64,000 nucleotides of DNA, taken from contig NC_135815.1 in the NCBI RefSeq assembly GCF_964213995.1, positions 16,306,001 through 16,370,000 of the forward strand, read 5' to 3'. The DNA comes from Mustelus asterias (Eukaryota). Shown piece by piece: positions 11,713 to 53,038 of this stretch. The position numbers and the translations under genes were made by a program. The notes beneath the pieces are model-generated. The model saw nothing but the letters and a program-made list of their open reading frames with translations, was not told the origin of the DNA and ran no database searches. Each line of letters begins with the position of its first letter. Position 1 is the stretch's first letter.

Positions 11713-12269
11713 TGTAATAAGTCCTCGGAGGCAGAAGTCCCTTCACCAAAATCCCTTTATTTACAAGTCTGACAACAGCAGAGGGCTTTCAGTTAGCTGT
11801 GAGATTCCAAGATGGCGCCGGAGTGAGGTGACTTCTTACAAGCTGTACCCAGCATACCTTCTAATTCTATCTTTTACTCTCGTTCTATGCTTCTAAAACT
11901 TCATTCTAACTCTTTTAAACTCTCTAACAATGCTTTAATTCAATCTCTTGCATTAAGTTGATCTTTCTCTGCACCCTAGCTATAACTGTAACACTACATT
12001 CTGCACTCTCTCGTTTCCTTCTCTATGAACGGTACGCTTTGTCTGTATAGCATGCAAAAAACAGTACTTTTCACTGCATGCTAATACATGTGACAATAAT
12101 AAATCAAATCAAATCAAATCAAATCAAAACACTCGGAGTCCCAGAGGGACTGACACTCATGGTGAAGTACAAAGCAAGAGGCTCCCTGATTGGCCCATCA
12201 ATTTGGCCCTTAATCAGGGAGTTAATGTTCTAACAGGCCCACCTCAATTGCCTGATTAAAGTCATTACA
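11713..12269. mobile_element. Solo LTR interrupted by a Rex1-type element
   Basis: TGT...ACA ends, flanks ctccc/ttccc; shares cttcaccaaa, ggctccctga and ttaaagtca..aca with 38738-38960. Confidence 0.6.
11801..12127 (+). mobile_element. Short Rex1-derived non-autonomous element (putative 5' end fused to 3' UTR)
   Basis: Starts ccaagatggcgccgg, joins the Rex1 3' UTR with no ORF, ends in (aaatc)5. Confidence 0.6.
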
Positions 12270-18756: not shown

Positions 18757-18882
18757 CTGTGCATTCAGTTTGCAATGCGTTGAGCTGATACCCGGGATTG
18801 CAGTTACATGTATATCCCTCTGGGAGATTGATACACTGGCCGGGTCCGCAGATCCTCGGATTAACGGAGCATTCGTCGATTT
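18757..18882 (-). CDS. LTBP1: cbEGF exon (EIDECSVNPRICGPGQCINLPEGYTCNCNPGYQLNALQTECT)
   Basis: 126 nt, AG/GT flanks, phase 1/1, six Cys and calcium-binding consensus; first cbEGF after the hinge. Confidence 0.92.
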
Positions 18883-27843: not shown

Positions 27844-28848
27844 TGTGTGTTTGTGTGAATTAGCATGGCCAATTCACCTGACCCACACATCTTTGGAGTG
27901 TGGAAGGAAACCGGAGTGCTGACAGGAAACCCACGCAGACACGGGGAGAACGTGCAAACGCCACACAGACTGTCACCAGAGGTCAGAGTTGAATCGGGAA
28001 GAAAGCTCCGCCCATGTGTCAGTGAGAACGCTGAAGGTATAACATATGCCCTGTTCCTATCTGTTTGCTGCACATTTCCCTCCGCACTGCCAGTATTTGG
28101 ACACACTAAGGAAGTAATTCAGTTTCATGCAACTGGTAAATAGGTGAACTGGTGTCGCACTGTAAAGGATGATAACTTTATCAAGTTTGTCACTAGAAAT
28201 AGGACATTCAGAAAGCAATCAACAACCTCTTCAAAGTTAAGGCAAAACTTGTAACTTACTAGAAAACACACAGCACCTGGGTGGCGCAGTGGTTAGCACT
28301 GCTGCCTCACAGCACCAGGGATCCGAGTTCAATTCCGGCCTCGGGTCACTGTCTGCATGGAGTTTGCATGTTCTCCCCATGCCTGCGCGTGTTTGCCCAC
28401 AATCCGAAAGATGTGCAGGTTAGGTGGATTGGCCATGGTAAATTCCCCCTTAGTGTCAGGGGGATTAGCAGGGTAAATGCATGGGTGGAGGCGCAGGCTC
28501 GATGGGCAGAATAGCCTCCTTCTGCACTGTAGGGATTCTATACTGAGTGTTACCAGATCACTTCTCTCTCTGGTAAGCTTGGAATGTTTCCAGAAAAGAA
28601 TCATTCCGGACACAAAGGATAAATGGTCTGAATTAGTCTGACAGAGGAGGTCACTGAGACTCCATCGATTATTTAGCTGTCCGAAGTTCCAATGCAAAGG
28701 ATCTCCCCCACTGGACAAATCCTTTGCGGCTTCTGCTGATGTAACTTAAGGCAGAAGAGAAGTGGAAACCCGGGTTGATATCAGTGTCCCACTGAAAGTT
28801 ATAGCAGTCCATCAAGAGGATTCTCATTGTTCATGTTTACTGTACTTA

Positions 28849-29148
28849 GGGCGGCACGGTAGCACTGCTGCCTCACAGCGCCAGGGACCCAGGTTCGATT
28901 CCCGGCTTGAGTCACTCTCTGTGCAGAGTCGGCACATTCTCCCCATGTCTGCGTGGGTTTCCCCCGGGTGCTCCGGTTTCCTCCCATAGTCTGAAAGACG
29001 TGCTGGTTAGGGTGCATTGGCCGTGCTAAATTCTCCCTCAGTGTACCACAACAGGCGCCGGAGTGCGGCGACTAGGGGATTTTCACAGTAACTTCATTGC
29101 AGTGTTAATGTCAGCCTACTTGTGACAAATAAATAAACTTTACTTTAC
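28849..29148 (+). mobile_element. HE1 V-SINE, type-B tail, abutting the splice donor of exon 29149-29247
   Basis: tRNA-like head gggcggcacggtagcactgctgcc..ggttcgattccc, V-domain, tail ...cctacttgtgacaaataaataaactttactttac. Confidence 0.9.
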
Positions 29149-29247
29149 CTGCAACTTGAGTGGACGCGATGAAGTGAGTCAAGCTCGATGTGGACACATC
29201 CGGAGCAATGTGGACCGGGTTTGGTGGGGAGGTTTTCTCCACCACTT
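29149..29247 (-). CDS. LTBP1: LTBP1-like hinge exon (EVVEKTSPPNPVHIAPDVSTSSLTHFIASTQVA)
   Basis: 99 nt, ttttattttgtaacag acceptor, G|gtaaag donor, phase 1/1; resembles human VVIEKTSPPVPVEVAPEASTSSASQVIAPTQVT. Confidence 0.88.
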
Positions 29248-31001
29248 CTGTTACAAAATAAAAGCAAAAAAACATCTAAATGACAGGAACAAAAGTAACG
29301 CAGAATTATTATATTTCCTCCAAATTAAACGTAGCTTCATTTCTCCGCAGGCAGCTGAATCAACATTGGACACGGGGCTCAAATCTCAATCTCAATGGAC
29401 GTTAGTACTGCGGCACTTTATTCTAAACAGTTTCACTAATCACTCCCATGTCACCTTTTGTCTGGAGGGGATGGGCTGGGAAAAGATGCAAGGCTTTCCC
29501 ACAACATGAAACAAATCAGGTCAGGACCAAGGATGGGAATATCTGTGTGGGTTTCCTCCGGGAGCTCCAGTTTCCTCCCACAGTCCGAAAGGCGCGCAGG
29601 TTAGGTGCATTGGCCATGCTAAATTCTCCCTCAGTGTACCCGAACAGGCGCCAGAGTGTGGCGACTAAGGGATTTTCACTTTAACTTCATTGCAGTGTTA
29701 ATGTAAGCCTACTTGTGACACTAATAAATAGACTTAAAACTTAAATTAACATTGGGCGGAATTTTCCATATTCTCCAGTTGGCAGGATTTTCCAGTCCCG
29801 TCAAAGTCCCTGGACTTCTGGACGGCTTGCCGCATTTTACAGCCCCCTCCCCAAGGCGACAGTAAAATTCCGCCCATAGTCACAATATTACTGGACTAGT
29901 AATCCGAAGCCCCCAGACTAATATTCCAGTGACACAAGTTCAAATCCCACCAACGCAGCTGTACTGCTCCAGTCCGGCCTACATGGAACTCCAGACCCAT
30001 GGTTGATTCTCAGCTACCCTCTTTGTCCTTTGTTTTGAAATGGCCTCGGAAAGCCATCAAGCTGCTACAGAGGTAAAAATTACAGTGGGTGTACCCACAA
30101 CACATGGGGCAGGATTTTATAGCCTCGCTCATCCCGAAACCGTAAAATCCCATCTGAGGTCAATGGACCTTCCCATTGTCCCTCCCTCGCCCCACTCCGA
30201 ATCCCGTGGCGGGCCGATAAAATTCCGGCGATGGACTCCAATGGTTCAGGAAGGCAGCTCGCCACCACACCTTCTCAAGGGCAATTAGGAATGGACAACA
30301 AATGCTGGCTGAGCCAGTGATGCCCACATTTCAAAAGCGAGTAAGAAGATGGAGTTGGTCGCTGCCACGATGAGGGCAGGGCTGCACTGTCCTCCCAGGG
30401 GAGGTGTCAGGAGAAGGGAATTTGGAGAGAGGTGAAGGAGCGACATGGTGGCACAGTGGTTGGCACTGCTGCCTCACAGCACCAGGGATGTGGGTTCGAT
30501 TCCCGGCTTGGGTCAATGTCGGTGTGGAGTTAGCACATTCTCCCTGTGTTTGCGTGGGTTTCCTCCCACAGACCAAAGACGTGCGGGTTAGGTTGTTTGG
30601 CCCATGCTAAATTGCGCCTTAGTGTCAGGGTAAATAAGTAGGGAATAGGGCCTGGATGGGATTGCGGTTGGTGCGGACTCGATGAACCGAATGGCCTCAT
30701 TCTACACTGTAGGGATTGTATGATTCTGTGAAAGGAACTTTTCCCCAATCAGTTCATCCTGCTAAAAGCAGGAAATTTGCTGAATGGGTAACTCCTTCAA
30801 ATTCAAACATCAAGCTGTGAGTTATCCGCCTCGCCCTGGTGTGGGTCAAAAGGCAGAACAAGGCCTAACACAAACACAGCAACAAGCACGGTAAACAGTT
30901 ACATGCAGCTAGCAGACCAGGAATAGAACCGCAGTTACATCCACTGTTGCTATAGCTGCAAAGCGGGGAATCAATGTCCAGTGAGAGTTGGTTGTACTTA
31001 C

Positions 31002-31092
31002 CGGGGAAGCCAGAGTTTATCTGGATGGTTGTAATGCTGGGGGATAACTGAGGCAGACCAGATTCCACAACGTGCTTCTCTTTTTCTAGTTC
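31002..31092 (-). CDS. LTBP1: LTBP1-like hinge exon (ELEKEKHVVESGLPQLSPSITTIQINSGFP)
   Basis: 91 nt, tcttttcattgtattcag acceptor, G|gtaagt donor, phase 0 to 1; resembles human LTBP1 QEKTKLEPGQPQLSPGISTIHLHPQFP. Confidence 0.87.
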
Positions 31093-33409: not shown

Positions 33410-33432
33410 CTTTTCAGGCATGCTGGTGGCCA
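33410..33432 (-). CDS. LTBP1: LTBP1-like 23-nt micro-exon (VATSMPEK)
   Basis: tttttgttacag|TG GCC ACC AGC ATG CCT GAA AAG|gtaggt; phase 1 to 0, which is exactly what links the neighbouring exons; recalled human LTBP1 has VATAPPEK here. Confidence 0.85.
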
Positions 33433-33522
33433 CTGTAACAAAAAATATTTTTTTTAAATGGTTAAAATTGTACAGTATTTCCACATTAACAAGTGTTAAA
33501 GGCAGTGTTTTCATTCAAAATT

Positions 33523-34200
33523 ATAGAAAAGGGAAAGGGCAGGCAGAGCAGGGTTCCCCTGTCCCTCCACAACAGGTATACCGATTTGGATACTGTTGTG
33601 GGGGATGCCTTACCTGGGACAAGCTGCGGCAGCCGGATCTCTGGCACTGAGTCGGGTTCTGCAGCGCAGAAGGGAGGGTGGAAGAAGAGGAGAGCGGTAG
33701 TGATAGGGGACTCGATAGTCAGAGGTACAGACAGGAGGTTCCATAGTCGTGACAGAGACTCCCGGCTGGTTTGTTGTCTCCCGGGTGCCAGGGTCAGGGA
33801 TGTCTCTGATCGAGTGCACAACATTCTGAAGTGGGAGGGTGATCAGCCAGATGTCATGGTACACATTGGTACCAATGACGTAGGAAGGAAGAGTGAGGAG
33901 GTCCTGAAGAGTGAGTATAGAGAGCTTGGTAGGAAGTTAAAAAGCAGGACCCCGAGGGTAGTAATCTCAGGATTGCTACCTGTGCCACGTGCCAGTGAGG
34001 GTAAGAGTAGGATGCTCGGGAGGATGAACACGTGGCTGAGCAACTGGTGTAGGGGGCAGGGTTTCAGATTTCTAGATCATTGGGGCCTCTTCTGGGGCAG
34101 GTGGGACCTGTACAAGAGAGACGGGTTACACCTGAACTACAAGGGGACCAATATACTTGCAGGGAGGTTTGCTAGTGTTATTGGGGAGGGTTTAAACTAG
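33523..34200 (+). pseudogene. CR1 ORF1 remnant, SGNH/GDSL esterase domain
   Basis: Open frame with GDS, GxND and DxxH motifs; 5' end missing. Confidence 0.85.
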
Positions 34201-34329
34201 ATTTGCAGGGGGATGGGAACCAGAGTGCCAGAGCAGATAGTGGAGCGGGGGTGAAAATAAATGATGCTAATAGTTCATGCAAATTCACAAATAGAAGGGT
34301 TGTGTGTGGTGGTAATAATCTTCTGAGGT

Positions 34330-37075
34330 GTGTCTATTTCAATGCCAGGAGTATCGTGGGGAAAGCAGACGAGCTGAGGGTGTGGATCGACACATGGAAT
34401 TATGACATTATAGCCATTGGTGAAACTTGGCTACAGGAGGGGCAGGACTGGCAGCTCAATGTTCCAGGGTTCCGATGTTTCAGACGTGATAGAGGCAGAG
34501 GGGTGAAGGGTGGGGGGGGTGGCATTGCTAGTCAGGGAATTTGTTACAGCAGTGCTCAGGCAGGACAGATTAGAGGGCTTGTCTACCCGAGGCCATATGG
34601 GTGGGGCTGAGAAACAGGAAAGGTATGATCACATTAATGGGGTGTATTATAGACCACCCAATAGTCAGCGAGAATTGGAGGAACAAATCTGCAGAGAGAT
34701 AGCAGACAACTGCAGGAAACATAAAGTTGTGATAGTAGGGGATTTTAATTTTCCACGGAAATATTGGGACTCCCATACTGTTAAAGGTCTAGACGGGTTA
34801 GAGTTTGTAAAATGTGTTCAGGAAAATTTTCTAAATCAATATATAGAGGTACCAACTAGAGAGGATGCAATATTAGATCTCCTATTAGGAAACGAGTTAG
34901 GACAAGTGACAGAAGTGTGTGTAGAGGAACACTTTGGTTCCAGTGATCACAACGCCATTAGTTTCAACTTGATCATGGATAAAGATAGATCTGGTCCTCG
35001 GGTTGAGGTTCTAAACTGGAAAAAGGCCAAATTTGAAGAAATGAGAAAGGATCTAAAAAGCATGGATTGGGACAGGCTGTTCTCTGGCAAGGATCTGATT
35101 GGTAAGTGGGAGGCCTTCAAAGGAGAAATTTTGAGAGTGCAGAGCTTGTATGTTCCTGTCAGGATTAAAGGCAAAGTGAATAAGAATAAGGAACCTTGGT
35201 TCTCGAGGGATATTGGAACTCTGATAAAGAAGAAAGAGAGATGTATGACATGTATAGGCAACAGGGAGCAAATAAGATGTTTGAGGAGTATATAAAGTGC
35301 AAGAAACTGCTTAAGAAAGAAATCAGGAGGGTTAAAAGAAGACATGAGGTTGCTTTGGCAGACAAGGTGATGGATAATCCTAAGAGCTTCTACAGGTATA
35401 TTAAGAGCAAAAGGATAGTAAGGGATAAAATTGGTCCTCTTGAAGATCAGAGTGGTCGGCTATGTATGGAACCAAAAGAAATGGGGGAGATATTAAATGG
35501 GTTTTTTGCATCCGTATTTACTAAGGAAACTGGCATGGAGTCTATGAAAATAAGGCAAACAAGTAGGGAAGTCATGGAACCTATACAGATTAAAGGGGAG
35601 GAGGTGCTTGCTGTCTTGAGGCAAATCAGAGTGGATAAATCCCCAGGACCGGACAGGGTATTCCCACGGACCTTGAGGGAAGCTAGTGTTGAAATTGCAG
35701 GGGCCCTGGCAGATATATTTAAAATGTCGGTATCCACAGGTGAGGTGCCGGATGATTGGAGGATAGCTCATGTTGTTCCGTTGTTTAAAAAAGGCTCAAA
35801 AAGTAATGCGGGAAATTATAGGTCAGTAGTAGGTAAATTATTGGAAGGAGTACTAAGGGATAGGATCTACAAATATTTGGATAGGGTCTTATTAGGGAGA
35901 GTCAACATGGCTTTGTGCGTGGTAGGTCATGTTTAACCAATCTATTAAGAGTTTTTCGAGGAAGTTACCAGGAAAGTAGATGAAGGGAAGGCAGTGGATG
36001 TTGTCTACATGGACTTCAGTAAGGCCTTTGACAAGGTCCTGCACGGAGGTTAGTTAGGAAGGTTCAGTCGCTAGGTATACATGGAGAGGTAGTAAATTGG
36101 ATTAGACATTGGCTTAATGGAAGAAGCCAGAGAGTGATAGTGGAGGATTGCTTCTCTGAGTGGAGGCCTGTGACTAGTGGTGTGCCGCAGGGATCAGTGC
36201 TGGGCCCATTGTTGTTTGTCATCTATATCAATGATCTGGATGATAATGTGGTAAATTGGATCAGCAAATTTGCTGATGATACAAAGATTGGAGGTGTAGT
36301 GGACAGTGAGGAAGGTTTTCAAAGCTTGCAGAGGGATTTGGACCAGCTAGAAAAATGGGCTGAAAAATGGCAGATGAAGTTTAATGCAGACAAGTGTGAG
36401 GTATTGCACTTTGGAAGGACAAACCAAGGTAGAACATACAAGGTAAATGGTAGGACACTGAAGAGTGCAGTAGAACAGAGGGATCTGGGAATACAGATAC
36501 ATAATTCCCTAACAGTGGCGTCACAGGTAGATAGGGTCGTAAAGAGTGCTTTTGGTACATTGGCCTTTATAAATCAAAGTATAAGACATTGGGTGAGGCT
36601 GAATTTAGAGTATTGTGTGCAGTTTTGGTCACCTAATTACAGGAAGGATATTAAAAAGGTTGAAAGAGTGCAGAGAAGGTTTACAAGGATGTTGCCGGGA
36701 CTTGAGAAACTGAGTTACAGAGAAAGGTTGAATAGGTTAGGACTTTATTCCCTGGAGCGTAGAAGAATGAGGGGAGATTTGATAGAGGTGTATAAAATTA
36801 TGATGGGTATAGATGGAGTGAGTGCAAGCAGGCTTTTTCCACTGAGGCTAGGGGAGAAAAAATCTAGAGGACATGAGTTAAGGGTGAAGGGGGAAAAGTT
36901 TAAAGGGAATATTAGGGGGGTCTTCTTCACACAGAGAGTGGTGGGAGTGTGGAATGAGCTGCCAGATGAAGTGGTGAATGCGGGCTCACTTTTAACATTT
37001 AAGAAAAACTTGGACAGGTACATGGATGAGAGGGGTGTGGAGGGATATGGTCCAGGTACAGGTCAGTGGGACTAG
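34330..37075 (+). pseudogene. CR1 ORF2 (endonuclease-reverse transcriptase), frameshifted
   Basis: Split across ORFs 34203-34610, 34510-35295, 35196-35936 and 36134-37075, with motifs in the expected order. Confidence 0.88.
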
Positions 37076-49083: not shown

Positions 49084-49390
49084 GGGCGGCACGGTGGCAC
49101 AGTGGTTAGCACTGCTGCCTCACAGCGCCAGGAACCCGGGCTCGATTCCAGGTTTTGGGTCACTGTCTGAGTGGAGTCTGCACATTCTCCCCGTGTCTGC
49201 GTGGGTTTCTTCTGGGTGCTCCGGTTTCCTCCCACAGTCCGAAAGACGTGCTGGTTAGGTGCACTGGCCAGGCTAAATTCTCCCTCAGTGTACCCGAACA
49301 GTTGCTGGAGTGTGGTGACCAGGGGATTTTCACAGTAACTTCATTGCAGTGTTACTGTAAGCCTACTTGTGACACTAATAAATTAACTTA
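49084..49390 (+). mobile_element. HE1 V-SINE, type-B tail (representative). Others: 1078-1380(-), 1972-2260(+), 5950-6232(+), 7470-7675(-), 12388-12672(+), 18908-19185(-), 21931-22130(+), 29542-29745(+), 31247-31565(+), 40888-41180(+), 46183-46810(+), 54052-54342(+)
   Basis: Pol III A/B boxes (tggcacagtggtt, ggctcgattcc), V-domain, tail aattctccctcagtgtacccg...gcctacttgtgacactaataaa. Confidence 0.9.
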
Positions 49391-52795: not shown

Positions 52796-53038
52796 CTTCT
52801 GGTATTAACACATCAGGCTGTGGAGTTTGGGTGGAAGAGAAGGCCTCGAAGGGCTGTTGCTCTAGTGGTATCTTTGCTGGAGTAGGTATAGGATCAGAGT
52901 GTTTAATCTCGGGGTGAGTCATTGTGGAGTCAGGGAGCTTATGGAATTTAACATCAGACCCAGGCTTGACAGTCACCTTCTTGAATGTCTGAGTAACATG
53001 GTAGCCCATTCCACCAGGGCAGATTTGCTTGAAGGCAG
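52796..53038 (-). CDS. LTBP1: LTBP1-like exon: C-terminal part of 8-Cys (TB) domain and start of hinge
   Basis: 243 nt, acceptor aaaacag, donor G|gtaagg, phase 1/1. Reads AAFKQICPGGMGYHVTQTFKK...PTPAKIPLEQQPFEAFSS...PE, matching recalled human LTBP1 AAFKEICPGGMGY...PLPAKEEPVEAL. LTBP family is secure; the paralogue assignment is less so. Confidence 0.88.

Follow-up and report, generated by a model that had tools for sequence, protein, structure and literature searches.

In the window (the whole stretch of 64,000 nucleotides of Mustelus asterias DNA that was analysed), a SINE lies antisense to LTBP1, four bases into a 5' splice donor that is in use. Related sharks share the insertion, and the same arrangement was found in four more genes. 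Probably the donor was once GTAAGT, and the element struck it with duplication of the 3 bp TAA and was tolerated by virtue of its donor-like tail. The best reading is that of a tolerated insertion, not of a splicing switch.

The insertion at the exon C donor of LTBP1

The host gene, LTBP1, lies on the minus strand of the window, and the three RefSeq proteins named Mustelus asterias matched, letter for letter, nine of the ten exon translations tested (the tenth range took in one intronic codon). The order on this strand is exon A (52796-53038; end of the TB domain and start of the hinge), a hinge micro-exon of 23 nt (33410-33432; peptide VATSMPEK, matched to models P0023, P0026 and P0031), hinge exon B (91 nt, 31002-31092), hinge exon C (29149-29247) and exon D (18757-18882; EIDEC..., first EGF of the run), followed by more EGF exons. 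The micro-exon has the donor AAG|GTAGGT, and its peptide is kept in shark and ray models. Exon C, which is single-copy in the genome, is the final exon ahead of the calcium-binding EGF run. Its translation (VVEKTSPP...TQVA) agrees with the length of 99 nt and phase 1/1 that the first-pass annotation had given, and TQVA is joined to EIDEC in all three M. asterias proteins. An LTBP1 intron also holds, at 33490-36200 (plus strand), a decayed LINE remnant with an esterase-like ORF1 and pieces of endonuclease/RT.

The tRNA-headed SINE (28849-29144, plus strand) has a tail of the (AAACTT/ACTTT)n type and shows 94.4% identity with the majority sequence of 60 full-length copies. Its head, short by about 11 nt, begins with GGG at 28849, behind the left flank tgtactta (28841-28848). 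Read by its letters, the tail (...aaataaataaactttactttac) extends to 29148, where it ends in ...ACTTT ACTTT AC and abuts exon C. On the minus strand the end of the exon reads GCAG|GTAAAGTAAAGTTTATTTA, the present donor (+1 to +8, GTAAAGTA) occupying 29141-29148 with a host base at +1. The window letters thus bear out both the contact between tail and donor and the tgtactta flank reported in the first-pass annotation. When the SINE and one TTA were deleted in silico, the sequence became GCAG|GTAAGTAC. The G at +1 (29148) is present once, without a duplicate, and TTA flanks the SINE on both sides (28846-28848 and 29145-29147, plus strand), so that the simplest reading takes +1 to +4 as host. Positions +2 to +4 (TAA) would then likely be a 3-bp duplication, the tail giving only +5 onward, and GTACA (28841-28845, minus strand) is likely the displaced +5 to +9 of the ancestral donor; no G+1 stands ahead of it, so no second donor remains. 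A cut within CAG|GTAAGTACAG with a 3-bp duplication would be the simplest history. Two earlier claims accordingly stand in part: removal of the SINE does give a perfect donor, though as a reconstruction of the ancestor, and the tail likely supplies the donor from +5 onward but not its GT, since G+1 is host and +2 to +4 are likely a host duplicate. Similarly, an actta-type flank (aactta) is present at the copy at 49084, as had been said, but this copy lies deep in an intron. The donor of exon B (31001-30993) reads GTAAGTACA on the minus strand, as does the donor reconstructed for exon C (28848-28841), which is probably a coincidence.

The element, about 300 nt long, is high-copy: 4,171 copies are intact from head to tail, and among 287 sampled tails 46 were 5'-truncated. 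At a lowered threshold ARAGORN folded the head of the 49084 copy into a tRNA-like shape, while Rfam gave no match for the head. The tRNA A and B boxes in the head are putative, and the element may resemble a V-SINE, a group marked by a conserved central V domain. Head and body are common with the other SINE type of the window (84% over 179 nt, matching only to position 190), from which the tail differs; the ATTCTATG tail of that other type is, we take it, of the HE1/HER1 type. HE1 has its 3' tail in common with HER1, a LINE of the CR1 clade; the label 'HE1 type B', which comes from the first-pass annotation, is putative. No partner LINE was found, there being no LINE body common upstream of the truncated tails. 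Many truncated tails start near SINE position 238-247 (GGGATTTTCACAG), which may mark a LINE-derived part. Another repeat of the window (12070-12130, plus strand) ends in TTTTCAC...TGTGACAATAATAAAT followed by (CAAAT)n, like the tail of the focal SINE; such ends are presumably those of Rex1-type LINEs and offer a lead for the partner. In a loose motif count, the window held about 10 tails of the focal type antisense to LTBP1 and 4 in sense, and the sense tail has AATAAA.

Seven runs from relatives or the same species label were examined for the age of the insertion. X13 stops before the donor, X10 is RNA-like and X7 (151 identical letters, from only 313 contigs) was not counted as independent. 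The four informative relatives all carry the SINE, with intron identities of 91-95%, and none has an empty site. X4 (95%; 18 differences in 383 nt) extends 31 nt into the tail. X15 (93%) begins in the left flank and enters the head by 41 nt without a gap, and hence has the short head deletion of the focal copy as well. X14 and X19 (91-92%; 31 and 27 differences in 345 nt) have the same tail variant and an identical +1 to +7 (GTAAAGT), with one ACTTT unit where the focal copy has two; on the SINE side they overlap by 28 letters, just short of the 31 required by the bridging rule. On these alignments, the insertion is old and common to several shark lineages.

Other genes and insertion preference

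The genome has 71,513 exact matches to the tail core. The core is followed by TTACCTG (antisense CAG|GTAA) at 77 loci, all of which were examined (LTBP1 and 76 others), and by TTACCTH at 318 loci, of which 84 were examined. Open frames of at least 20 residues ending at the junction were searched against Pfam profiles. This led to an ADAM-type exon (L026; E 2e-16), a P4-ATPase exon (L064, G000:C16:27363108; E 1e-11), an ankyrin repeat exon (L086, presumably ANKLE1-like; E 2e-8) and a GINS2/PSF2 exon (L192; PDB match 1.6e-19, ending at the donor). Every one of them is accompanied by an acceptor and, 2.0-7.3 kb further along, by a next exon in the matching phase, which supports the first-pass view that insertions into antisense donors are survivable and recurrent; the donor evidence in these four genes is sequence, the RNA contigs covering LTBP1 only. 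Inspection by eye places all five junctions at +2 to +5; the donors of the four other genes went from GTAATT to GTAAAA, from GTAAGC to GTAAGG (with a 5-bp duplication), from GTGAGT to GTAAAA, and from GTAAAG or GTAAGT to GTAACT, if the reconstructions are right. The present donors of the ankyrin and ADAM genes (GTAAAA) gain neither a +5G nor a +6T from the tail. The true number of such donors is likely higher, because Pfam misses untranslated exons and hinge exons of the LTBP1 type, and extrapolation would give tens of them genome-wide.

Because of the 5-bp duplication in the P4-ATPase gene, the SINE has a further donor-like GTAAGC (GCA|GTAAGCAC) at its far end, through which the entire element might become exonized in that intron. 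Weak Pfam matches (L032, L036, L055, L091, L418 and L431) and matches to mobile elements (L038 and L108) were not counted as host exons. Nor were two loci with neat donors. L071 (G000:C18:15216194) has a layout like that of LTBP1, with the far flank TAAGTG and a present GTAAAG, and none of 144 nearby frames matched Pfam; it stands beside a CpG-rich, promoter-like stretch and could be an untranslated first exon. L128 (G000:C1:164193228) has the far flank TAAGTC and a present GTAAGT, a perfect donor-like site rebuilt by the tail, beside a hypothetical exon. The Pfam check at neat-donor candidates comprised 144 of 227 listed frames, with none from the L128 region.

The main alternative is targeted insertion, in which priming by the partner LINE needs the tail repeat to pair with nicked DNA and antisense GTAA donors are hit several-fold above chance; at LTBP1, microhomology with the tail may have primed integration. 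We consider such targeting unlikely. Host exons were found at 4 of 160 test loci and at 0 of 118 controls, which were tails followed by TTADCTG (0 of 30 examined, of 551), tails followed by CTCACCT, i.e. GTGAG donors (0 of 28 by Pfam), sense heads after CAGGTR (0 of 30 examined, of 112) and tails of the other type before TACCTG (0 of 30 examined, of 197). This contrast and the +2 to +5 position of all five junctions would fit targeting, but the excess over controls is not significant (Fisher p=0.11 overall, 0.09 with CAG only), so that a special role of the focal tail type is not proven, and the enrichment at antisense donors that the first-pass annotation had anticipated did not reach significance. 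A neutral model, built on an assumed 150,000-250,000 donors (201,541 are given for human in the available text of PMC4856993) and guessed tail-end frequencies, predicted 0.35-1.2 real donors among the 76 CAG|GTAA loci; three were found besides LTBP1, none of them ascertained beforehand (P 0.006-0.12 if Pfam saw every exon and smaller if not; P 0.004-0.09 with a 2.2-fold flank bias). Either chance or a few-fold excess would account for this count.

That flank bias comes from TTA, which preceded the head in 153 of the 4171 intact copies (3.7%); in random sequence totalling 200 kb the share was 1.64%, which makes a 2.2-fold enrichment in which the numerator pattern was one letter shorter. There was no excess of CTTA, found in 3 of 30 TTA copies against a background of 17%, and the proposed preference for (c)tta(c) targets is not supported. 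Duplication lengths were like those of shuffles, at least 4 nt being duplicated in 22 of 68 unselected full-length copies versus about 15 expected from shuffled flanks. Insertion thus appears close to random, with a mild bias for A/T flanks. A broader proposal is that the tail is a portable splice-donor mimic: its repeat would prime integration at antisense GTAA donors as well as restore a usable donor, and would over shark evolution have replaced the intronic half of tens to hundreds of conserved-gene donors at several times the chance rate. We regard it as rather doubtful; if true, these donors would amount to a natural mutagenesis series of 5' splice sites in which bulged U1 registers are represented.

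Reconstructed and present donor

Tolerance could be explained by the tail itself, which on the strand of the gene reads as a run of TAA(A)GT-like units. An ACTTA/ACTTTA-type unit (TAAGT- or TAAAGT-like on that strand) is present in 34 of 68 unselected tails, so that an antisense copy landing after G+1 would tend to leave a usable donor. At LTBP1 the host would keep G-T-A-A and the tail replace +5 onward; the exon-side CAG with GTAA would make seven pairs with U1, and AGTA from the tail is predicted to add four in a register with a one-base bulge. More generally, the outcome of such a landing would tend to be GTAA with G, AG or A after it, each of which should be usable behind a strong exon end. 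Copies that wreck a donor would be lost, whereas antisense copies with the focal tail type would often leave an ordinary donor and could reach fixation.

It is also conceivable that the SINE landed at +5 or beyond in a donor other than GTAAGT, or with a small target deletion, the TAAGTAC flank being coincidental and the tail having no part in the rescue. Since none of the four informative relatives has an empty site, both GTAAGT as the ancestral donor and the duplication are reconstructed, and, with no clear excess of duplications over shuffled flanks, TTA could be tail letters. A loose joining rule rebuilt GTRAGT at 19 of 156 (12%) other tail+TTACCT loci, all of them non-exon, which makes the reconstruction suggestive but not proof; moreover, GTAAAG is ordinary in LTBP1, the donor at 584 being AAG|GTAAAG with no SINE. 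Under the strict rule, however, a far flank starting with T[AG]AGT was found at only 2 of these 156 loci but at 2 of the 5 real donors (L086, and LTBP1 with its junction set by eye). The strict count alone was used, because an automatic donor-rebuilding test mis-set 3 of the 5 real junctions and had a background of 45%. We hold this alternative to be very improbable, and retain the landing in a GTAAGT donor.

Donor strength was estimated as the RNAduplex energy with the 5' end of U1. The predicted energy was -9.4 kcal/mol for the present donor (with a one-base bulge) and -13.5 kcal/mol for the reconstructed one, in line with the earlier claim that the tail left a weaker donor. CAG|GTAAA without the bulge gave -8.3 kcal/mol, so that the bulge gains about 1 kcal/mol. 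The nine other LTBP1 donors of the window ranged from -5.3 to -11.8 kcal/mol, a range that includes the present one. By this measure, the present donor of exon C is weaker than its reconstructed ancestor, yet ordinary.

The donor beside the SINE is the one in use, as the first-pass annotation had assumed. A contig of 5349 nt from run X10 (depth 35.6) matched 29149-29248 with zero differences, departing from the genomic sequence towards exon D at 29149 and towards exon B at 29248, i.e. joining B, C and D exactly at CAG|GTAAAG and without SINE letters, so that the element has not been exonized here. The start of D and the end of B appeared as loose ends of the contig. This run, which has the same species label as the best holders, was judged RNA-like from its exon-only cover and spliced ends. 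No other donor for exon C was seen among the X10 contigs, including the tandem GTs at +6 and +11, for which U1 pairing is predicted to be poor (-3.2 and -1.6 kcal/mol); contigs from this single run drop rare forms, so low-level skipping could escape. Exon C was included, with the same spacing, in 86 of the 87 scorable shark and ray LTBP1 models (90 chondrichthyan proteins fetched; gene models, not measurements), and these models gave no sign of more skipping in SINE-bearing species. The only skipper was a stingray isoform (P0016), which lacks exactly exon C. Exon C thus appears to stay essentially constitutive, and the suggestion that the SINE retunes its inclusion finds no support. A catshark model (P0020) lacks exon A, and the hinge is alternatively spliced in other lineages.

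A regulatory effect on LTBP1, with the weaker donor and a variable number of ACTTT units setting inclusion of an exon that can be skipped in frame, would accord with the predicted loss of about 4 kcal/mol of U1 pairing, with the variation in unit number (one in X14 and X19 but two in lineages A and B), with the stingray isoform and with canine merle, where a SINE tail can tune splicing (PMC7349775), but we judge it the least likely explanation, since the one skipping model comes from a ray and all three M. asterias models include the exon, the contig is unbroken from B to D, the unit variation lies beyond +7 and, in the available text of PMC2172370, it was the N-terminal part of the hinge (402-449) of human LTBP-1S that supported activation and not the C-terminal part (449-529), the end at which exon C lies.

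Comparison with known systems

Insertions are commonly assumed to be barred from the first six bases of an intron. In the shark, a SINE has become fixed at these positions in no fewer than five conserved genes, and in LTBP1 splicing is normal and the insertion is common to several lineages of sharks. The before/after donor pairs offer a test bed for tolerated weakening and for rescue by bulged U1 pairing, and the LTBP1 copy is a clean presence/absence marker for shark phylogeny; no new regulatory system has been shown so far. In the openly available literature searched, we found no earlier report of the focal tail type completing host donors, or of such cases in sharks.

The family resembles the HE1 V-SINE and HER1 LINE of sharks and rays (PMC3747384, PMC2911107) in its tRNA-like head and in the body common with the other SINE type of the window, and HE1, which has no poly(A) tail according to the same sources, differs from the focal copy in its 3' part. 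As far as the available text of these papers goes, the effects of HE1 reported in zebrafish are exonizations from internal sites, whereas here the tail completes a host donor. One-base-bulge registers between 5' splice sites and U1 have been validated in human cells (Tan et al. 2016, PMC4856993), while the bulge in the shark donor is predicted by RNAduplex alone. Compared with these registers, CAG|GTAAAGTA is the consensus with an extra A among +3 to +5 and no +5 G, which would place it in class bulge 1 (+3/+4/+5) of that paper.

The closest parallel is canine merle (SINEC_Cf at the PMEL intron 10/exon 11 boundary; PMC7349775). In both cases an antisense SINE has its junction within a host splice signal, with a target-site duplication (likely in ours), and the SINE tail behaves as a microsatellite beside the splice signal. 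Merle, as described in the available text, affects an acceptor and is polymorphic, with a poly(A) tail, a duplication of 15 bp, a splicing shift and a phenotype; the LTBP1 copy involves a donor, a tail of the (AAACTT)n type and a likely 3-bp duplication, is fixed across several sharks and has no visible change in splicing. In human and mouse, transposable elements are scarce near exons, and the ones that do lie very near tend to be at donors, a bias attributed to the shortness of the donor signal (about 6 bp); copies in antisense are for the most part better tolerated (Zhang et al. 2011, PMC3088655). The LTBP1 SINE fits this donor bias. The mammalian elements, in the available text of that study, sit beside the donor, whereas the shark junctions lie inside +2 to +5, with letters of the tail replacing part of the signal.
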